Source: an uncultured Bacteroidales bacterium (GTDB lineage Bacteria > Bacteroidota > Bacteroidia > Bacteroidales > UBA1715). From it: a stretch of 48,158 nucleotides of DNA. The stretch is from positions 1 through 48,158 of the forward strand of contig CAZLCY010000001.1 of the NCBI GenBank assembly GCA_964558075.1. Reading direction: 5' to 3'. The notes under the pieces were generated by a model that was not told where the DNA came from, searched no databases, and saw only the letters and a list, made by a program, of their open reading frames with translations. Shown piece by piece: positions 1,369-48,158 of this stretch. Position numbers and translations under genes: made by a program. Each line of letters starts with the position of its first letter. Within the stretch, counting starts at the first letter, position 1.

Positions 1369-1400
1369 GCGCGGGTACAATTCTATTGCGCGCGGGTACA
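1369..1400. repeat. direct repeat GCGCGGGTACA x2 (21-bp period)
   Basis: gcgcgggtaca occurs at 1369-1379 and 1390-1400, each time followed by (a)tTCTATT. It sits in the divergent intergenic region. Confidence 0.8.
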
Positions 1401-7898: not shown

Positions 7899-10800
7899 TT
7901 ATTGTATATGAATTTCATTTTTTCGTTGGTTATCGTCCTCATCTGGATCTCGTATTACTTCACCTTGAACGTATTTAAGCCATAGACGTTCTTGTGGACT
8001 TAATCCATCTTTTTTAATGCGTTTTATTGTTTGTTCATTAAGCACACCATGAACATCGCTTGTTGTAAATGGTTTTTTCTCCGTCCGCCTCTGCGCGTTT
8101 CTAAACCTTTTATATGAAATATCAAAACCATTATTAATGGCTTCATCTTTAAATGCGTGTGCTAATCGCGAAAGTATTGCATCTTGTATTTCATATACAT
8201 TTTCTTCAGTAATTTTTTCATGTCTATTTCGAAGTTTAAGATAATCAGCGGCGGCATTATATTGACTCATTGTAACTTCTGGTTGATTCATTAACTTTTT
8301 AATAGTAAATTTATTGGCGCGGCTAACATATGTATTAATTATATCACTTTCTTTGTTTTGTTCCCAATTAGTTATATTGTAACCGCGTCGTTTTGCTTCA
8401 CTATATCGGGCTTCATCGGCAGATCTTACTCCGATAAGATTGAGCATAAGTTCCAGTCCATCATATTCTCTAACGTGTCCAGTTCTTATATCAACATTTA
8501 TAGGATATGTTCTTGCATCATTTAAAACTTTAAGACCTTCTTGTCCAAGTAAACTTACAGTACTATCTGCAAGAGTATCTTGCCATGACCAATTTTCATC
8601 ATTAAGTTCATTAGATTTCTCTATTTTATAATTAAGGGCGGCTCGACCAAAATTAAGTAACATTGCATGTGTAAGTAATGCACGAGTATCTCGCGCTTCT
8701 TTTTCTACTTTACCGGACGCAACAAGTTCGGGTTTACTTGATTGATATAATAAATCAACTATTTGTAAAAATGGAGTTTCAATATTCATAACACCACCCG
8801 GTTCAAATCTTGATCTCCAATCACCATTAGTTACTGAATTCACTACGCCTTCATCAAGAATGTCTAATACTACTAATGCACCATAATTCACAACTTTATT
8901 CATTACTTCCTGTTCTTCGGTTGATTGATCTAATTTTTCGGCACGTTGTGCCATCATATCATGAATAACACGTTTTATTCCGGTTTCTAATTGATGTGTT
9001 GCTTTATCAAGTAATTTAACTCGAAATGCGCCCTCGCCTTTTTCTTGATGTAAATTACGTTTTTTAGTAACATTAGCGACACCTTTAAGTGTCGAGTTTG
9101 TTGCACCTGTAAATATATTACTAAATCCCTGAAACATTCTATATCCAACAACAGATCCAATACCACCCAGCATTATTTCAGTAGCTACTTCTAACGGAAG
9201 TTGACTAATTTTTTTCATACTGCCCGGTTCTGCCATTTTCCATAAACCAGAAATTCCCTCTTCAGCTACATCATCTAAAGTACCAACTAACGCTTTCATA
9301 ACATTTAAATTTTTAGACCACGCATAAGTTTTAAATTGATTTAATGCTAAATCAATTATAGGGATTTGGAATATTAATCCTTTATTAGCGGATGTATAAT
9401 TAAAATGAACTGCGTTAATGCCTTCGGTAGTATTAATGACTGCATCTTTAAGTTCAGTCGTCCATGTAGTTGGATCGGTTATATCAACGTTAGGATCTTT
9501 TAACATTGTTACCATATCCATATCACCGAATTTGGCTTGAACTTCTTTCAATCGACCTAACTTTCCTTCAATACTTTTGCGCTTAACAGCAGGTAAATCC
9601 GGGTTTTTAAGTAAAGATTCAAACTCGGTAATCTTATTACCAACATTTGCAGTTCTTTCGTCTGCCCAATTAAGGTAAGCATAGAATGAGCGCAGTCTAT
9701 TATATTGTTCACTTTTTTTAAAGAAGTTAAGATGATCATTAACTGTTCTATTCCATACTCTTGTTCCGACGCCACCTTGTATTCCAAATTGACGTGTGCC
9801 TTCAGTAGCAAATGATTCGGGATCGAGTAATCCCAGTTTATATGCTACCTGCATTTTTTCTGGCATTTGTTTAATTAATTCGTCGTGAGGTAATCCTCTA
9901 TTTTGAAGTTTGATTTTTAAAAATCTCATGGAATCTGCGGTTGCTTCAACATGCGATCGTGTTGCAACTTTAGTTCCATATATAGCGTTATCGAATAATG
10001 CTTGCGTTGTATTAACTAACGCTGAAGCCGGATTATGTTTAACTTTCAATCCAGAGATTACGTTTCTTATTCCATATACTAAATTATTAAGAGTATTTTT
10101 TCCACGAGTGCGACCCATTACTCCTGACATTAATTTTTCAACATTATCCGCGTATTTACCACCGCCCGCTTTTCTTAAATTATTAACCACGCCTTCTGCT
10201 TCAATGAGTGCAGGCTCAAGCATAATTTTACGTCCAGCTTCCCTAAAATCATCTTCAAGAATATCTTTCAGGTTAATTTTATATTCCATCATTCCACGTT
10301 CGGGATCTACTTCGTAAGTTCTTCCGGCAACTTTTTCTTTAGGTAAACGACCTAAATCCATACCGCCTTTATTACTTATATTTTCAACAGAAATAGTTTT
10401 ATTAACACGATTTTTAAAATCTTCAAAATCTTTTATGTATTGATCCGGGGCTTCATTAAGTCCCGTATTTAATAAAAGATCTTTCATATCTTCTTTATCA
10501 AGATTACTCATGTTTCTAAGTAAATCTTGTTTATAAAAATCAAGTTGGCGTTTTTGACTAAACAATGTTTTATGTCCGGCGCGTTTACGATATTCCAGTA
10601 AGTTGTTAATTTTATCTTTAAAACTCTTTTTAACTTTTTTTGCATGTTTGTACATGTGTTCTCTAACATCTTTAAACCGCACATCTTGTGCAGTTTTAAA
10701 TTTTCGAATTTCTTTATTTCGTTCTATTCTATAGGCATGTATTTCCTTTTCTTTTTTATAATTTAATTCAGCTTTGTATTCATTGACTTTATTAGTAATA

Positions 10801-13800
10801 TCATCCGGTTTATATCGACCATCAGCTTCTAATGATTTTTTAAATGTTTCAACGCTTTCATTTATGTTTGCGTTCCACTCTTTACGTAATTCGCTTACAT
10901 ACTCTTTACTAAAAGACATTAAGTCTTTTTTCATTTGTTGTTTATTAACAGATTTAGCTTTTCTAAATCTTGAAACTATTTCACTTACATCACTATCAAA
11001 TTCTTTTTGTTGAATTTCAAAACCGCGTTTTAACGGTTCGGTTTTTAATTCTGCTTGCTCATTAGCCATTTTGTTTAATTGTTTAACATATTGAGGATCG
11101 TTCATTTGTTCTCTTAATACTTTCTTTTTTGTATTAATAAGATAATACACACGTTTTTCTATTTCGTCTATACGTTCTGTCGGGATGTTAATTCCAAGTT
11201 GATCTCTCATTGCTTGATATGGATCGTCGAGATGGAATGTATCAAGAAAAGTTTTTACGTTAGTATCATCCGCTGAAAAACCTACGTTATCACCTCTGCG
11301 ATACATAAAATCATATAAATCACCATAAGTAGTTCCAACATAAGATTGAATACCATCTGCTGATGATTCAGAAAGTTTTTTTCGAACTTCACCCCAGCCT
11401 TTAGTTGTGAAATATTTCTCAACATACATGTCTTTGGCAATATCTAATGCTTGTTGTTTTTTATCAACAGCGAGTTGTTTAACTAAACGTTTAGCGTTAA
11501 TATTTTTTGATACTTGATCAAATAATTCATCCTCCGTTGCAAGTCCTGTTTTATCAAGCATAAATTTAGTAATCTTTTCACGTTCGGTAGCGTCGAAAAT
11601 TTGTCCGGTTTTATATTCGTAACCAAAGTTTTTTTCTGCAATATCCGCTAATATTCTTGATTTACCCATGTTTACAGCATCTCTTGTATTTTTTGCAAAT
11701 AATGCAATCCGAGGGCCATCCTCTGAATGATAAATCACTTTTTGATTTCCTTCAACCGGTTTTTTAGGTAACCAATAATTAGGCTGTTTTTCTGGTAAAC
11801 CGGGTGGCTGAAAATCTGGATCGCTTAACAATTCATTAACACGTTTTGTTCTTTCAGTTCTTGTTGCGTTCCAATAAAATTCAGGATCGTTATCGACAAT
11901 ATAACGCTCGGTAGCGTTCCTTTTTAATTGTTCATATGAAGGTTTAAACCATCTTTCTTGTATGGTTTGATATACTTCTGCGAAGTTCTTATCTTCGATT
12001 AATAATTTATCGATCATATCAGAATCTTGATTACGCATAGCAGTATCCCATAAATTAGTAATTCGTTTAATTTCTTCTTTATCAAATTTAATTAAAGAAT
12101 CAGAAATGTCGGCCATACGGTGCATTTGTTGCGCATCGGCCATTTGTGTTAATGCTGAAGTTTCATCCCACAGCCTATTTACTGCCGCGATATGATCACG
12201 TAGTTCGTCTGCGCGTGGCAACATAAGTTCAAATAATTTACCAAATTCACGTTGGACTGGCATATATTGATGTACAGACAAACCCATTCGACCGAGCTTA
12301 GAACGTACTTTACCTACTGGAGTTTTTACATTTTCTCCCGGATGTGTAAAAGGTTCTATTTTGGTTCTTTTAGTATCAACAGTGCCCCTTAATTTATTTA
12401 GTTGATATTTAAGATTATTGTATAAACGTATTACACCATCTTTCACAGGTATTCCCGCGTGGAATTTCGCGAATGATTTCGAATATAGTGCATCATCTAA
12501 CCTTATCAAATCAGTATATTGTTCGGGATCAGCAATTTGTTTTAACGCATTAACTAAATCATCATCTAAAACATTATCCAACATTTTAATTGTTGATTTC
12601 TTTTTAGTAATATCAAGATTAGTGTTTTCAAGTAAGAATCTAACTCTATCCTCATTTAAATCTAACGGCCCATCGCCAAATTTAATATCAATGGGTGTAT
12701 CAAATTCTAAAGCGTTTTCTTCCGCGGCGCGCAAAATGTTATCCATTTCAATTCTAAAAATATCGGCCATTGCATTGTTATTTATTCTATCTTTAATAAA
12801 ACGTTTTCCAGCTCTGTAAAGATATTTTGAACCTTTATTTTTTCGAACGTGATTAATTAAACGTTGCTCCATTTGCGCAATCGTCGGGGCCGCTTCTAAA
12901 TCAGAATACATTATTCCTTCTGCATCCGCTTTTTTAACATCTTGTAGCGGTGTAAGAATCGTTTCTCCTGTAAATGTATCGACTTCATCTATAAGATGAC
13001 CATCGCGATGTAGCGTTCTCACGCGATAACCCGCTTTATAATCGTAGTTAGGATCAGGCGTTAAGCCCGTTCTTTCTTGTATGTCCTTAAATGTTCTTGC
13101 GATTCTTTCTTTATCAACCGCACTTTTACCATCTAAGACTTCCTGAAAATTAAATCCCATAAATTCAGCAGATAAATCATCTTTAAGATTATTCAAATTT
13201 CTAAGGGCGGAGCGTAATTTAACCTCCATTTTTTTGTCTGCATTTCCACTATCTAAAACAATATTTATGTTTGATATTTTTTCGTCGATATCATCAAGAT
13301 TTCTAACCAAGTTGTCAATTGTAGGCGAATTTTCAATTTCGTGATTAGCAACTCGACGTGCTACAGTCTTTTTGAATCCAATTTCGTTTGCTTGCTTTAA
13401 TAATTCTTGCACCTGTTCTGGGGTGGTTTTACTATAATCCTTTGGAACCAATTTAATGAATTCATCTTCAGATTGAATTATAGCATCATTTACAAGATTA
13501 CCGATTATTTCATTAACTTTGCCTTTAGATTTAATTGCTAATTGTTCCATTTCCGGGGTTATTTTTGCACCACGTTCCAAAAGCTTTTGATATTTTTCGA
13601 GCGTATTTCCAGCGTCAATAACTTCGTCAACTTGACCACTTTTCATGATAAGGTTCGGTATGTTATCACTATCAACAGCATTTTTAGGTAACATTCCCGG
13701 ATCAAAGTTATAGATTTGGTTCATTGAATTTTTAACTTCACCATGTTTAACAACATCATCGATCGCACCACCAAAATTATAAAATGCAGAAAAATCAACA

Positions 13801-15017
13801 ACCATATCAAGTGCGCCACCAACAAATTCTGCGCGATTGACCGCTATCATTCCTTCAGTTTCATTAAGAACGGCCTCACTCGGCGAATACAACCAATCTG
13901 CAAATCGGCCAAAAGTTCCTTTTTTACCAACATATTTTTTGAATACAGGATCGATGATTTCAGTTTTAGAGTCGCCCTTTTCAACTTCATAATTTATTTC
14001 GGTAGTATATTCTCCCGACCAAGTTTTATCTGCGCGGCGAATCTCTTGAAATACCGGTTTCATTCCTTCACTCACAAAACCGAGTAGCGGTATTCCGGCA
14101 ACGACATCACGCTCATCTAAATTATATAAATCAGCATTACCATTTAAAATATCTTCCCATGTTTGTCTAAAATTAACTAATTGTCCTGCCGCTTTAGCCG
14201 TCATTCGGCCCGGTAAAGAACCTAAATTCATAACACCGGTACCGGCGCCAGTAAGTGCATAATTTAAATCTTTAGAAGAACCACTCCGAAAAGTCGCGGC
14301 AAATGCGCCTTTAGCTTGTCGTATTTGTTCTGGAGAATATTGCTCTAATCGTAAATGTTGTGCCCATTGTTCGTCCGTGGGGGCGGGCCAATATACGACA
14401 GCATCATTTATATCTTCGCGTTTTAATTCATTTTCTCGCGTGAATACTGAATTATTATTTACGTCCGATTCCATAATTTCCGAGGCAATTGGAACTTTTT
14501 CAATTATAGTTTTTTCTTCATTATATTGTACCCACTTTTCGTTTTGTTTACCTAAAAATGCGCCTATATTTATAAGATCATTTTTAACACCCGTTATGTC
14601 TAATTTAATTCCATAATCATCGGATTCTTCCATCTCTTCAATATGTTTAACTAAATTTTCTCGTGTAAGGCTCCGATCGGGTTGTTTGCTTTGATATTCA
14701 GATAAAGCGGGTTCAATTAAATCACTTTTGAATAGTTCATATTCTGATGAACCGAGGGCAGTAAGTGGTTGACGTGCTCTATTTTGTATTTTACGTGCTT
14801 TATTAAAAACGAAATTTTTTGCATCATCAGTTAATACTACGCCTTCAGGTAATTGACCATTTTTAACTACATAGTCAACGTAGGGGCTAAGTTTTTTAGC
14901 CCCCTCTCCTTCTTGTTCGTTTGCCGGTGTTTCTCTAATAGGCGTTTCAGTTTTTTGATCATAATATGGCGATAAATCTAATTTGAAGCCATTATCGTCA
15001 TAGTTTAAAAAGTTCAA
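7899..15017 (-). CDS. giant virion-associated protein (2372 aa), putative internal/ejection protein
   Basis: This is a single uninterrupted 7.1-kb ORF. Its position, after the fibre and disordered-protein genes, resembles podovirus internal-protein modules. I recognised no polymerase, lysozyme or peptidase motif. Confidence 0.6.
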   Translation of the reverse strand: MNFLNYDDNGFKLDLSPYYDQKTETPIRETPANEQEGEGAKKLSPYVDYVVKNGQLPEGVVLTDDAKNFVFNKARKIQNRARQPLTALGSSEYELFKSDLIEPALSEYQSKQPDRSLTRENLVKHIEEMEESDDYGIKLDITGVKNDLINIGAFLGKQNEKWVQYNEEKTIIEKVPIASEIMESDVNNNSVFTRENELKREDINDAVVYWPAPTDEQWAQHLRLEQYSPEQIRQAKGAFAATFRSGSSKDLNYALTGAGTGVMNLGSLPGRMTAKAAGQLVNFRQTWEDILNGNADLYNLDERDVVAGIPLLGFVSEGMKPVFQEIRRADKTWSGEYTTEINYEVEKGDSKTEIIDPVFKKYVGKKGTFGRFADWLYSPSEAVLNETEGMIAVNRAEFVGGALDMVVDFSAFYNFGGAIDDVVKHGEVKNSMNQIYNFDPGMLPKNAVDSDNIPNLIMKSGQVDEVIDAGNTLEKYQKLLERGAKITPEMEQLAIKSKGKVNEIIGNLVNDAIIQSEDEFIKLVPKDYSKTTPEQVQELLKQANEIGFKKTVARRVANHEIENSPTIDNLVRNLDDIDEKISNINIVLDSGNADKKMEVKLRSALRNLNNLKDDLSAEFMGFNFQEVLDGKSAVDKERIARTFKDIQERTGLTPDPNYDYKAGYRVRTLHRDGHLIDEVDTFTGETILTPLQDVKKADAEGIMYSDLEAAPTIAQMEQRLINHVRKNKGSKYLYRAGKRFIKDRINNNAMADIFRIEMDNILRAAEENALEFDTPIDIKFGDGPLDLNEDRVRFLLENTNLDITKKKSTIKMLDNVLDDDLVNALKQIADPEQYTDLIRLDDALYSKSFAKFHAGIPVKDGVIRLYNNLKYQLNKLRGTVDTKRTKIEPFTHPGENVKTPVGKVRSKLGRMGLSVHQYMPVQREFGKLFELMLPRADELRDHIAAVNRLWDETSALTQMADAQQMHRMADISDSLIKFDKEEIKRITNLWDTAMRNQDSDMIDKLLIEDKNFAEVYQTIQERWFKPSYEQLKRNATERYIVDNDPEFYWNATRTERTKRVNELLSDPDFQPPGLPEKQPNYWLPKKPVEGNQKVIYHSEDGPRIALFAKNTRDAVNMGKSRILADIAEKNFGYEYKTGQIFDATEREKITKFMLDKTGLATEDELFDQVSKNINAKRLVKQLAVDKKQQALDIAKDMYVEKYFTTKGWGEVRKKLSESSADGIQSYVGTTYGDLYDFMYRRGDNVGFSADDTNVKTFLDTFHLDDPYQAMRDQLGINIPTERIDEIEKRVYYLINTKKKVLREQMNDPQYVKQLNKMANEQAELKTEPLKRGFEIQQKEFDSDVSEIVSRFRKAKSVNKQQMKKDLMSFSKEYVSELRKEWNANINESVETFKKSLEADGRYKPDDITNKVNEYKAELNYKKEKEIHAYRIERNKEIRKFKTAQDVRFKDVREHMYKHAKKVKKSFKDKINNLLEYRKRAGHKTLFSQKRQLDFYKQDLLRNMSNLDKEDMKDLLLNTGLNEAPDQYIKDFEDFKNRVNKTISVENISNKGGMDLGRLPKEKVAGRTYEVDPERGMMEYKINLKDILEDDFREAGRKIMLEPALIEAEGVVNNLRKAGGGKYADNVEKLMSGVMGRTRGKNTLNNLVYGIRNVISGLKVKHNPASALVNTTQALFDNAIYGTKVATRSHVEATADSMRFLKIKLQNRGLPHDELIKQMPEKMQVAYKLGLLDPESFATEGTRQFGIQGGVGTRVWNRTVNDHLNFFKKSEQYNRLRSFYAYLNWADERTANVGNKITEFESLLKNPDLPAVKRKSIEGKLGRLKEVQAKFGDMDMVTMLKDPNVDITDPTTWTTELKDAVINTTEGINAVHFNYTSANKGLIFQIPIIDLALNQFKTYAWSKNLNVMKALVGTLDDVAEEGISGLWKMAEPGSMKKISQLPLEVATEIMLGGIGSVVGYRMFQGFSNIFTGATNSTLKGVANVTKKRNLHQEKGEGAFRVKLLDKATHQLETGIKRVIHDMMAQRAEKLDQSTEEQEVMNKVVNYGALVVLDILDEGVVNSVTNGDWRSRFEPGGVMNIETPFLQIVDLLYQSSKPELVASGKVEKEARDTRALLTHAMLLNFGRAALNYKIEKSNELNDENWSWQDTLADSTVSLLGQEGLKVLNDARTYPINVDIRTGHVREYDGLELMLNLIGVRSADEARYSEAKRRGYNITNWEQNKESDIINTYVSRANKFTIKKLMNQPEVTMSQYNAAADYLKLRNRHEKITEENVYEIQDAILSRLAHAFKDEAINNGFDISYKRFRNAQRRTEKKPFTTSDVHGVLNEQTIKRIKKDGLSPQERLWLKYVQGEVIRDPDEDDNQRKNEIHIQ

Positions 15018-46915: not shown

Positions 46916-46999
46916 TTAGCATGCTATCACGGCCATAAAAATGACCATAATAATCCACGCTATCATGGCAATTTCTTGCCATGTTAATTCAATTTTCAT
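46916..46999 (-). CDS. 27-aa hydrophobic peptide
   Basis: Hand-translated as MKIELTWQEIAMIAWIIMVIFMAVIAC. RBS AGGAG lies 8 nt upstream. It follows the structured leader at 47029-47108. Confidence 0.45.
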   Translation of the reverse strand: MKIELTWQEIAMIAWIIMVIFMAVIAC

Positions 47000-47028
47000 A
47001 TTTCATACTCCTTTTTTTTAAATACAAA

Positions 47029-47052
47029 TTACCCGGATTTGTCGACTCCGGG
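47029..47052. repeat. conserved 24-nt hairpin repeat, copy 1 (minus strand: CCCGGA-GUCGACAAA-UCCGGG-UAA)
   Basis: ttacccggatttgtcgactccggg is identical to 47772-47795. A truncated copy lies at 48148-48158 and a 10-nt remnant at 1294-1303. Confidence 0.9.
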
Positions 47053-47108
47053 CGTGCCGGATAGAGGGAAGCAAGCCCGGCACCTGAAATAGGTAAGGTC
47101 TTACTTCC
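47053..47108 (-). ncRNA. unclassified pseudoknotted RNA element
   Basis: The minus strand has GGAAG (47108-47104) complementary to CUUCC (47071-47067). That CUUCC lies in the loop of a 7-bp hairpin, GUGCCGG (47083-47077) paired with CCGGCAC (47060-47054). A small GUAA-GACC-UUAC hairpin lies between them. Together these give an H-type pseudoknot topology. Confidence 0.4.
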
Positions 47109-47156
47109 AAAAAATAAAGCCATCATATATCCTCCAAACAGATATACAATGGCTTT
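47109..47156 (-). terminator. rho-independent terminator after the 169-aa gene
   Basis: On the minus strand AAAGCCAU pairs with AUGGCUUU, with an inner AUAUC/GAUAU helix, followed by AUUUUUU. Confidence 0.6.
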
Positions 47157-47159
47157 ATT

Positions 47160-47669
47160 TTATATAAATTCCCTTTGTATATATTCTTCATAGGCCGTTT
47201 TACGGCCTATGATGGCTATTGTCGTTGTGGTTGTAGTGCTATTCATATGCACTACTTTTTTATTTTTACCTTCGGGGAGGCAAACTATGCCTTTCCCGTC
47301 GAAATAATACACATTACAGGGAGCGACATCGTAATGTGCAATTTTACGATGCTCTCCCCCCCCTGTTGTGTATTCTATGACTTCTGAAGGCTCTATGTCC
47401 TCCAGAAGGACCCTTGATTTTTTTCCCTTTGGAACTATAAAAGTTCCGTAGGGTTCTTTTCTTATTTCCCATCCGGGAATCAACCATTCAGGGGAATGGT
47501 TTAATATGAAACCGGGTTTTATTTCCCCGGTTTTAGTATTAATTGCATCTCCCCATTCATGGGGGTTGGTGCAATTAAAAAATGGATTTATACTCTTATG
47601 ATAATGCAGACCTGCCATAGTCTGCATTTTACGGAGCTGTTTAAGCTCCTTTTTATTTAGTTTTTTCAT
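47160..47669 (-). CDS. hypothetical protein (169 aa)
   Basis: I set the start at the ATG at 47669 (MKKLNKKELKQ), after AAAGAGGAAG. The track's 30-codon N-terminal extension runs through the hammerhead sequence. Confidence 0.55.
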   Translation of the reverse strand: MKKLNKKELKQLRKMQTMAGLHYHKSINPFFNCTNPHEWGDAINTKTGEIKPGFILNHSPEWLIPGWEIRKEPYGTFIVPKGKKSRVLLEDIEPSEVIEYTTGGGEHRKIAHYDVAPCNVYYFDGKGIVCLPEGKNKKVVHMNSTTTTTTIAIIGRKTAYEEYIQREFI

Positions 47670-47714
47670 TTTTTCTTCCTCTTTCTCCCCTTTTCGCCGG
47701 AGCGCGGTTGATTT

Positions 47715-47771
47715 CCGTTTCGCTCCCCGCTGGTTGCGGAGGCTCATCAGCCCTGTCAATTCAGGGGACGG
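47715..47771 (-). ncRNA. type III hammerhead self-cleaving ribozyme
   Basis: The minus strand reads CCGU-C/CCCUG-AAUUGA-CAGGG-CUGAUGA-GCCUCCGC-AACCA-GCGGGGAGC-GAAA-CGG. All invariant core residues are present: CUGAUGA, GAA, the A15.1:U16.1 pair and the G10.1:C11.1 pair. The GUC cleavage triplet places the cut between 47767 and 47766. Confidence 0.85.
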
Positions 47772-47795
47772 TTACCCGGATTTGTCGACTCCGGG
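47772..47795. repeat. conserved 24-nt hairpin repeat, copy 2
   Basis: It is identical to 47029-47052 and lies immediately 5' (on the minus strand) of hammerhead stem III. Confidence 0.9.
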
Positions 47796-47817
47796 TGGGC
47801 CGTGGGAAGGGAGTGAA

Positions 47818-48075
47818 TTACTCTTCACTCCCCTCCCAAGTTACTCTCATAATAAATTCGAAATCTTCGAATTCATAGCTGGCATACCAGGGCAGGGCTT
47901 CGAACCCATATTTATCCTGGTATTTAAACATGACAAGGCACTGTTCCATTGACAGTGCCTTAATGAGAGCCAACCCGGCCTCCGCCGGGCTGATGCCGTT
48001 ATCATATTCCAGCGCATCCTGAAGCGATATAGTATCCAAATTGCCAATTTGGATATTTTTTACTTCCGTATTCAT
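47818..48075 (-). CDS. hypothetical protein (85 aa) flanked by two ribozymes
   Basis: From the ORF track, with RBS AGGAGG 7 nt upstream. Its last codons form the 5' arm of a 9-bp hairpin (GGGAGUGAA/UUCACUCCC). Confidence 0.6.
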   Translation of the reverse strand: MNTEVKNIQIGNLDTISLQDALEYDNGISPAEAGLALIKALSMEQCLVMFKYQDKYGFEALPWYASYEFEDFEFIMRVTWEGSEE

Positions 48076-48103
48076 TTTCTTCCTCCTAAATTTTTACTCC
48101 CAT

Positions 48104-48150
48104 CCCCCTTTAACACGGGCTTTGGACCGTCCTCGGCGGGGTTAAAGTTA
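48104..48150 (-). ncRNA. twister-like self-cleaving ribozyme (core)
   Basis: The minus strand reads UAA-CUUUAAC-CCCGCCGAGG-ACGG-UCCAAAGC-CCGU-GUUAAAG-GGGG. P2 is CUUUAAC/GUUAAAG and P4 is ACGG/CCGU with an 8-nt loop, UCCAAAGC. The loop GC can pair with the upstream GCC, and the loop CC with the 3' G-run. This is the twister double-pseudoknot layout. Confidence 0.6.
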
Positions 48151-48158
48151 CCCGGATT
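48148..48158. repeat. conserved hairpin repeat, copy 3 (truncated at the window end)
   Basis: ttacccggatt matches the first 11 nt of the repeat. Joined to window position 1 (gggccgggatag), it gives a shorter CCCGG-CCCAAU-CCGGG hairpin on the minus strand. Confidence 0.7.

Follow-up and report, generated by a model that had tools for sequence, protein, structure and literature searches.

A repeated hairpin directly upstream of predicted twister and hammerhead ribozymes in the early operon of an orphan phage, a candidate 3'-end cap

Contig CAZLCY010000001.1 (assembly GCA_964558075.1, assigned to an uncultured Bacteroidales bacterium), referred to below as the window, is a complete phage contig of 48,158 nucleotides (nt), and a 24-nt hairpin recurs on the minus strand of its early operon. 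One and the same stem sequence precedes two unrelated classes of predicted self-cleaving ribozyme, a type-P1 twister and a type III hammerhead, with a linker of 2-3 nt. In other phage contigs, strong hairpins likewise abut these two topologies, which cut near their own 5' end, and not type I hammerheads. On balance it is probable, judging from predicted folds and cut sites, that the repeated hairpin is a stem-loop of the kind called P0 in twisters and that it caps the upstream mRNA at the 3' end created by cleavage.

The repeat, CCCGGAGTCGACAAATCCGGGTAA, is present in exactly two copies in the window, both where they had originally been predicted, against an expectation of 0 from shuffles, and no additional match was found in the window with up to 3 mismatches. 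It is predicted to fold into a 6-base-pair (bp) stem with a 9-nt loop. The 10-mer ATCCGGGTAA, which forms its 3' part, has four exact copies, all on the minus strand, at 1294, 47029, 47772 and 48148; shuffled sequences give an expected count of 0.09, and the four copies are confined to about 1.4 kb of the early operon. The copies and their parts are as follows.

47772..47795, minus strand: hairpin copy 2, CCCGGA-GUCGACAAA-UCCGGG-UAA; exact 24-mer; -10.1 kcal/mol by fold prediction
47029..47052, minus strand: hairpin copy 1, identical to copy 2 and identical in the strain variant L001; followed by UUUGUAUUUAAAAAAAA, a ribosome-binding site (RBS) and an open reading frame (ORF) of 27 amino acids (aa)
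48148..48158, minus strand: 3' half of the junction copy, AAUCCGGG-UAA; exact 10-mer, its final A being the first nucleotide of twister P1
1..8, minus strand: 5' half of the junction copy, CCCGG-CCC, on condition that the contig is circular; begins 4 nt past the ORF95 stop codon
1294..1303, minus strand: 10-nt remnant ATCCGGGTAA, just 3' of the promoter-like TTGACA-18-GATTAT at 1342-1313; conserved in the variant locus L002

The hairpins that precede ribozymes sit directly after stop codons, the junction copy 4 nt past that of ORF95 and copy 2 22 nt past that of ORF85. Copy 2 lies 3 nt ahead of hammerhead stem III and is predicted to end 8 nt from the new 3' end once the hammerhead cleaves. 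The loops measure 6, 8 or 9 nt across the copies, and the tails after the hairpins read UAACCGUCCCC, UAACUUUAACCCC and UAAUUUGUAUUU. A shortened copy had also been proposed across the window ends, and this claim stands in part. The joined ends read CCCGG-CCCAAU-CCGGG-UAA, with the stem of the other copies, 2 nt ahead of twister P1 and at -8.1 kcal/mol, a layout that agrees with the one seen in the twisters surveyed below, but the copy presupposes a circular contig whose ends join with nothing lost, and no terminal repeat was found at the contig ends. The contig break (window 1 / 48158) falls within this hairpin, between CCCGGCCC and AATCCGGG. Between strains, no spot varies more than the loop of copy 2, so the break may stem from a bubble in the assembly graph, and some loop bases may have been lost. 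The remnant at 1294-1303 lies, as foreseen, near a possible transcription start, that of the predicted promoter 1342-1313; no convincing local hairpin was found there, its 44-nt context folding no better than shuffles (z = +0.95), and no Rfam match at E < 1 was found downstream of it. The original prediction went further in placing the hairpin at every intergenic junction. It marks three consecutive junctions only: ORF127/ORF57 and ORF57/ORF95 are without a copy, and ORF27/ORF45 has an unrelated terminator hairpin. The pyrimidine-rich flanks said to align 5' of copies 1 and 2 give a local alignment score of 12, which shuffled sequences reach readily (p = 0.31).

The sole informative relative is a variant from another assembly (L001 and L002, from SRR21542054) that is 98% identical to the window, collinear with it and, in L001, has the same hairpin arrangement. 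In L001, 3 of the 9 loop positions of copy 2 are changed, one of them by a 1-nt deletion, and the stem and UAA are unchanged. The hammerhead carries a single change in 60 nt, at its last base, and the following 42 nt carry 8 changes. It thus appears from this comparison that structure rather than sequence is conserved in copy 2, which fits a structural role. Further relatives were sought without success. The exact hairpin motif has 0 matches in IMG/VR, JGI metagenomes and GTDB genomes, blastn of the region against INPHARED gave no match, and locus searches in IMG/VR anchored on the ORF169 protein, the amidoligase and the helicase recovered no relatives. Amidoligase homologues reach at most 32% identity and are located in unrelated actinophage-like contigs, and the helicase reaches at most 29% identity to cultured phages by tblastn.

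Each copy is followed by a different downstream element, as had been claimed: a twister-P1 match (46 bits), a Hammerhead_3 match (25.5 bits), or, for copy 1, an AU-rich stretch with the RBS and the 27-aa ORF. The order of ORF, hairpin and self-cleaving ribozyme, proposed originally as a modular arrangement, holds at two consecutive junctions. The two ribozymes are the following.

48096..48148, minus strand: type-P1 twister without the optional P3; Rfam twister-P1 (RF03160), 46 bits, E 1e-8
47712..47774, minus strand: type III hammerhead; Rfam Hammerhead_3 (RF00008), 25.5 bits, E 0.0095

The twister falls below the gathering score (46 vs 67.2 bits) because the optional P3 hairpin is missing; its E value, 1e-8 for a scan of 1.4 kb, becomes 3.9e-7 when the whole window is scanned. 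The alignment runs from end to end, with helices P1, P2 and P4, the conserved UAA, GCC, GGUCC.AAGCCCG and GA.GG, and the PK2 pseudoknot. Its single deviation, CCA for CCC in loop 4, is compensated by GAUGG for GAGGG in PK2. Among 28 distinct phage twisters in the matches listed, loop-4 CC(C/A) and GA(G/U)GG covary strictly, with 14 A/U pairs, 14 C/G pairs and 0 mixed, and the window twister belongs to the A/U class. When Rfam was run at its gathering threshold on 18 twister loci, no ribozyme was returned, showing that this score is too strict for twisters without P3. The hammerhead, also below its gathering score (25.5 vs 48.5 bits), has its low score because of a bulged A in stem II; E 0.0095 refers to a scan of 1.4 kb, and no hammerhead was reported at E < 0.5 when the whole window was scanned. 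Stem III is CCGU/ACGG, stem I CCCUG/CAGGG (5 bp) and stem II 8 bp with the bulge, stems I and II being closed by loops. Its core includes the GUC cleavage triplet, CUGAUGA...GAAA, CUGAUGAG, CGAAAC and the A15.1-U16.1 pair. To judge from these features, the twister and the hammerhead are credible self-cleaving ribozymes.

The predicted cuts fall at U48144|A48143 in the twister and C47767|C47766 in the hammerhead, so that beyond the hairpin the upstream products would keep 7 nt at the twister and 8 nt at the hammerhead. An RNA of roughly 383 nt, from 48149 to 47767, had been proposed as the released piece; the twister cut corrects this to 48143 to 47767, or 377 nt, with ORF85 as its sole gene. 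As had been foreseen, this predicted monocistronic RNA would bear 5'-OH and 2',3'-cyclic phosphate ends, which follows from established ribozyme chemistry. A separate observation concerns the sequence ahead of the hammerhead, where ACGG at 47803-47800 duplicates the 3' strand of stem III and, in the minimum free energy fold, pairs with CCGU at 47771-47768, enclosing hairpin copy 2. This ACGG lies 15 nt past the ORF85 stop codon, and a terminating ribosome might therefore influence the pairing.

The generality of the arrangement was surveyed by pattern scans of IMG/VR (loci L008-L127 for twisters, L128-L337 for hammerheads). The type-P1-compatible twister core pattern gave at least 120 matches, many of which are without the upstream UAA and may not be twisters. 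Among the twister matches listed, the 40 nt upstream of 30 non-redundant type-P1 twisters, the window's included, fold at a mean of -10.3 kcal/mol, compared with -5.6 kcal/mol in random windows of the same loci and -3.5 kcal/mol in the downstream flank, and a strong hairpin is found close upstream in 22 of 32. For 34 non-redundant, structurally validated type III hammerheads the upstream mean is -11.2 kcal/mol (controls -5.6), and in 62% a hairpin at least as strong as -8 kcal/mol ends no more than 3 nt from stem III. The simple hammerhead detector misses the window's own hammerhead on account of its stem II bulge. Type I hammerheads, by contrast, show no enrichment (n = 91; -5.8 vs -5.5 kcal/mol) and have an abutting hairpin in 5% of cases; the difference between type III and type I is marked (Mann-Whitney p = 1e-6). 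Where a hairpin is present, its median distance to the scissile bond is 6 nt in type III hammerheads and, among the twister matches listed, 3.5 nt in type P1. The rule that emerges is that a strong abutting hairpin accompanies the topologies that cut near the 5' end, type III hammerhead and type-P1 twister, and not the type I hammerhead. No description of the type III versus type I contrast was found in the literature searched. The thermodynamic predictions thus show an arrangement that is general and appears to depend on ribozyme topology.

Several observations accompany the survey. The type-P3 twister pattern has 3 matches in IMG/VR (L338-L340), too few to serve as a control, and phage twisters seem to be overwhelmingly of type P1. 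In another phage contig, L022 (IMG/VR 3300014205_000494), about 2 kb holds a twister together with two type III hammerheads, of which the first has an abutting hairpin of 9 bp on its 5' side and the second has none.

The link with topology bears directly on function. In type III hammerheads and type-P1 twisters the cut lies only a few nucleotides inside the 5' edge, and the upstream product keeps almost no ribozyme, whereas type I hammerheads cut near their 3' edge and leave an upstream product that ends in the folded ribozyme body. Since hairpins go with the 5'-cutting topologies and not with type I, a role as 3'-end cap for the released upstream mRNA is suggested. Moreover, one hairpin sequence serves both a twister and a hammerhead, and its job would thus be independent of ribozyme class. 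In the mechanism proposed, host-type promoters would transcribe the early operon as a single long RNA, which the twister and the hammerhead would cut co-transcriptionally into single-gene pieces. Both topologies would leave just 7-8 nt of ribozyme on the upstream piece, that is, a single-stranded 3' tail if no further structure were present. With the upstream hairpin, the 3' end would resemble that of a terminated transcript: a stem, then a short tail bearing a 2',3'-cyclic phosphate. That structured 3' ends hinder 3' exonucleases and tailing rests on established properties of such enzymes, and the capped end would be expected to block 3'-to-5' exonucleases and tailing in the same manner. The downstream piece would retain the ribozyme body as a folded cap at its 5' end. 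In this way a read-through transcript would be cut up into monocistronic mRNAs, each stabilised separately, with no need to terminate transcription. Both the cleavage in vivo and the stabilising effect of the hairpin are inferred here from these predictions.

A number of points weigh against this reading. Copy 1 is a full hairpin without a ribozyme and follows a strong terminator, so that the capping model does not directly explain it; no Rfam match was found just downstream of it, and the remnant at 1294 is without a convincing hairpin. Copy 1 and the remnant are best read as duplicated or left-over modules, although copy 1 might instead work together with a protein RNase that cuts the AU-rich stretch after the hairpin. 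In addition, all four copies agree exactly in AUCCGGGUAA, the 3' arm and its flanks; a purely structural role would not require this, and recent duplication may be all that it reflects. P0 lowers twister cleavage in vitro (0.40 vs 0.85; PMC11662667), and for this reason it may modulate the ribozyme as well, or instead. An open short helix (stem III or P1) in need of a stacking partner could give the same contrast between type III and type I. The survey is small, pattern-based (GUC triplet, fixed cores), de-duplicated at 80% identity only and built on thermodynamic prediction only, and both window ribozymes score under the Rfam gathering thresholds. An unknown ribozyme after copy 1 was considered and dropped, as only 20 nt separate this copy from the RBS.

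Among the alternatives, the least improbable, though rather unlikely, is that the hairpin modulates the ribozyme: it would insulate the ribozyme's folding, stack coaxially on the short open helix (P1 or stem III), or delay cleavage by means of competing pairings, and what becomes of the upstream RNA would be incidental. The hairpins do lie 0-3 nt from an open helix, twister self-cleavage in vitro drops to about half with P0 (PMC11662667), and at copy 2 ACGG can pair with the 5' strand of stem III to give an extended hairpin that would compete with the active fold. No comparable competing pairing, however, is visible for the twister copy on reading its sequence, an element that lowers activity is unlike a folding aid, and at copy 1 there is no ribozyme on which to act. 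In type I hammerheads, too, a short helix (stem I) is open and the upstream sequence is equally unpredictable, and yet they show no hairpin enrichment. A further possibility, an improbable one, is that the hairpins are boundaries of mobile or shuffled cassettes, serving as recombination substrates by which units of ribozyme, ORF and hairpin are gained, lost or swapped. The identical 24-mer stands in direct orientation on both sides of a unit of hammerhead, ORF169 and terminator, the flanked ORFs are orphans, and the presence of the same stem before two ribozyme classes suggests part exchange at the hairpin. Repetition of the hairpin alone is also unusual: in other phages, among the matches listed, P0 is repeated only where the entire twister is duplicated, which makes this spread peculiar to the present phage and keeps the idea of recombination alive. 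Against it, L001, the only related sequence, has the same arrangement, the flanks beyond the 24-mer are not similar above chance, 24 nt is short for homologous recombination, and the phage encodes no integrase or HUH transposase. Nor is the attC core GTTRRRY matched, the reverse complement of the repeat reading GTTACCC; an integron attC site was accordingly rejected, with no integrase among the 52 ORFs.

Less probable still is an RNA-binding site for a phage or host protein, either an antiterminator site of the boxB/nut kind or an RNase entry site. The three to four copies on the transcribed strand of the early operon, the strict conservation of AUCCGGGUAA and a terminator downstream of copies 2 and 3 would all suit such a site. 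The loop is variable, however, reading GUCGACAAA, GCCGAUAA (in L001) or CCCAAU, and a nut-type tether to the polymerase would be lost once the ribozyme cut 7-8 nt downstream. Among the phage ORFs, no RNA-binding protein, N-like or other, was identified, and unrelated hairpin sequences occupy the same position in the other phages of the survey. A boxB/nut site was thus rejected on account of the differing loops between copies and strains, the dissimilar upstream flanks and the missing N-like protein, and the original suggestion of a protein or RNase recognition site found no support either, the stem being kept in L001 under 3 changes in 9 loop positions and the junction loop differing again. 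A DNA-level element is the least probable of all. In this case the repeat would be an operator of inverted half-sites CCCGGA/TCCGGG, or a promoter with the loop sequence TCGACA as its -35 box. The repeat does have inverted symmetry, the remnant at 1294 overlaps the start site predicted for promoter 1342-1313, and TCGACA-17 nt-TTTAAA at copy 1 resembles a weak sigma-70 promoter on reading the sequence. A dimeric operator, however, could not tolerate half-site spacings of 9, 8 (L001) and 4 bp, the promoter scan reported nothing at copy 1, copy 2 or the junction, and no -10 element was found after copy 2 or the junction copy.

Other identities were considered for the hairpin and set aside. An intrinsic terminator was rejected since the tails are without a direct U-run and the terminator scan reported none of the copies. 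A role of the UAA as stop codon or frameshift signal was dropped because it does not keep one frame with respect to the upstream ORFs (+1 and +2). A host repetitive extragenic palindromic (REP) element was dropped, the repeat being absent from the GTDB genome collection (185,579 species genomes). Hairpin promoters for a virion RNA polymerase, as in N4 or crAss phages, were rejected too, as no RNA polymerase is encoded and the 2372-aa ORF is without a DxDGD motif or family match. This ORF, at 7899-15017 on the minus strand, belongs to the structural module and has no Pfam or PHROG match.

The original prediction had further raised a circular mRNA. The 377-nt ORF85 message would be excised, its ends held by a 5-bp helix and joined by a host RtcB-type ligase into a circular, translatable mRNA, which is very improbable. 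In the excised RNA, the 3'-terminal CCGUC is predicted to pair with GAUGG beside twister P2 with a pairing probability of about 0.84; this helix would be stacked on P2 and would bring the ends 2 nt apart, and comparable end pairing was seen in 6 of 150 random windows. This predicted helix is the sole positive hint for circularisation, and a weak one. The phage itself encodes neither RtcB nor an RNA ligase, and circles from tandem hammerheads were sought by Perreault et al. and none were found (PMC3088659). If such a circle did form, it would be exonuclease-proof, with the P0-type hairpin beside the ligation junction.

The 3'-end cap invites comparison with several known systems. REP elements and terminator hairpins have reportedly been recognised as 3' stabilisers of upstream mRNA (Newbury et al. 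1987). They too would place a GC-rich stem at the 3' end of a message, where it is expected to block 3'-to-5' exonucleases, and recur in intergenic regions; here, by contrast, the 3' end would be made by the predicted self-cleavage, with a 2',3'-cyclic phosphate, and only 3-4 copies occur, in one operon. The promoter-early stem-loop (PeSL) cassettes of T4-type phages, said to have been described by Arbiol et al. in 2010, resemble the present case in their short repeated stem-loops between small orphan early ORFs, and shuffling was proposed in the original prediction as well; unlike them, copies 2 and 3 here are without an associated promoter. Synthetic insulators of the RiboJ type, reportedly introduced by Lou et al. 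in 2012, join a self-cleaving ribozyme to an adjacent hairpin to standardise mRNA ends. The RiboJ hairpin is 3' and serves the downstream RBS, whereas the hairpin here is 5' and would serve the upstream RNA.

The closest precedent is P0/L0 (Roth et al. 2014, characterised in PMC11662667), a variable GC-rich hairpin immediately 5' of type-P1 twisters in about 10% of candidates, without consensus and sometimes with a linker (PMC11662667). Its role has been called unclear, and it lowers cleavage in vitro (PMC11662667). Conditional on a circular contig, the junction copy, a GC-rich hairpin 2 nt before P1, falls under this definition. P0 is defined for the twister only, however, and in the window the same stem also stands before a hammerhead (copy 2) and alone (copy 1); copies 1 and 2 are P0-like by position and stem identity, not P0 by definition. 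Clustered hammerhead, twister and other self-cleaving ribozymes flank genes in phages and prophages, and processing of polycistronic RNA into units of differing stability has been proposed for them (PMC3088659, PMC6765202). Likewise, two ribozymes here bracket one small gene without known function in an early region. The differences are that a shared upstream hairpin and its dependence on topology are not described in PMC3088659 or PMC6765202, and that the present phage is without detectable relatives. Ribozyme-punctuated phage operons and the twister P0 were therefore already known, and the present results extend them by a P0-type hairpin before a hammerhead and by the topology-dependent rule.

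The roles of self-cleaving ribozymes in bacteria and phages are described as largely elusive apart from glmS (PMC6765202). The capping reading would refine the processing hypothesis of PMC3088659 and PMC6765202 into a sequence of hairpin cap, cut and ribozyme cap. If it is true, the hatchet and hepatitis delta virus (HDV)-like ribozymes of phages, whose cleavage site is at the 5' edge, should have comparable hairpins upstream, removal of the hairpin should shorten the half-life of the upstream mRNA, and inclusion of an upstream hairpin in ribozyme search descriptors could raise their specificity. Should the rule fail on larger data, the finding would be reduced to an ordinary P0-bearing twister beside a hammerhead in an orphan phage.

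The window has a G+C content of about 35%, with genes almost all on the minus strand. Encoded are a portal of the SU10 type with its adaptor, a family A DNA polymerase, a primase, an SNF2 helicase and lysin domains of the CHAP and NlpC-P60 families, and no RNA polymerase, RNA ligase or RtcB was found among the 52 ORFs. From these absences and the encoded gene set it follows that the phage is a podophage dependent on host transcription. Its host is probably Gram-positive. Read 5' to 3' on the minus strand, the early region begins with the promoter-like site 1342-1313, the remnant at 1303-1294, iterons and an extended -10 promoter. ORF127, ORF57 and ORF95 come after these, then the junction hairpin across the contig ends, the twister and ORF85, and finally hairpin copy 2, the hammerhead, ORF169, a terminator with a 21-bp stem, a 42-nt hairpin, copy 1, ORF27 and a second terminator. 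The features around the hairpins are listed below.

47818..48075, minus strand: ORF85, orphan 85-aa ORF, from the ORF list
47160..47669, minus strand: ORF169, orphan 169-aa ORF 3' of the hammerhead
47109..47160, minus strand: intrinsic terminator 3' of ORF169; its 21-bp stem is flanked 5' by an A-run and 3' by a T-run
46916-46999, minus strand: ORF27, the 27-aa ORF with an RBS ahead, after hairpin copy 1

ORF85 has no Pfam or PHROG family, and its protein cluster has a single member. ORF169 likewise has no Pfam or PHROG family, and a homologue search recovered ORF169 alone. The region 47015-47160, with the terminator, folds at -56.9 kcal/mol (z = -5.6).

Further observations were made at the start of the early operon. 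Five iterons of the TGTTAGCA type, at 984-1073 on the minus strand with a spacing of 20-21 nt, stand directly 5' of the extended -10 promoter TGTGCTATAAT at 936-926, which drives the ribozyme-containing operon; the array probably serves as an operator or belongs to an origin. Where divergent promoters separate the tRNA array from the early operon, GTACCCGCGC occurs twice as a direct repeat, 21 nt apart (1369-1399, minus strand). On the plus strand, an 86-nt RNA at 1585-1670 matches the Rfam transfer-messenger RNA (tmRNA) model at both ends (51.9 bits, gathering score 47), with the entire mRNA-like middle missing, and ARAGORN did not call it as a tmRNA. A perfect TTGACA-17-TATAAT promoter lies at 1546-1574, and genes for tRNA-Met, tRNA-Gln and tRNA-Leu come after the RNA. 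With its acceptor stem of the G3:U70 type and a T-arm, the 86-nt RNA looks like a stand-alone tRNA-like domain.

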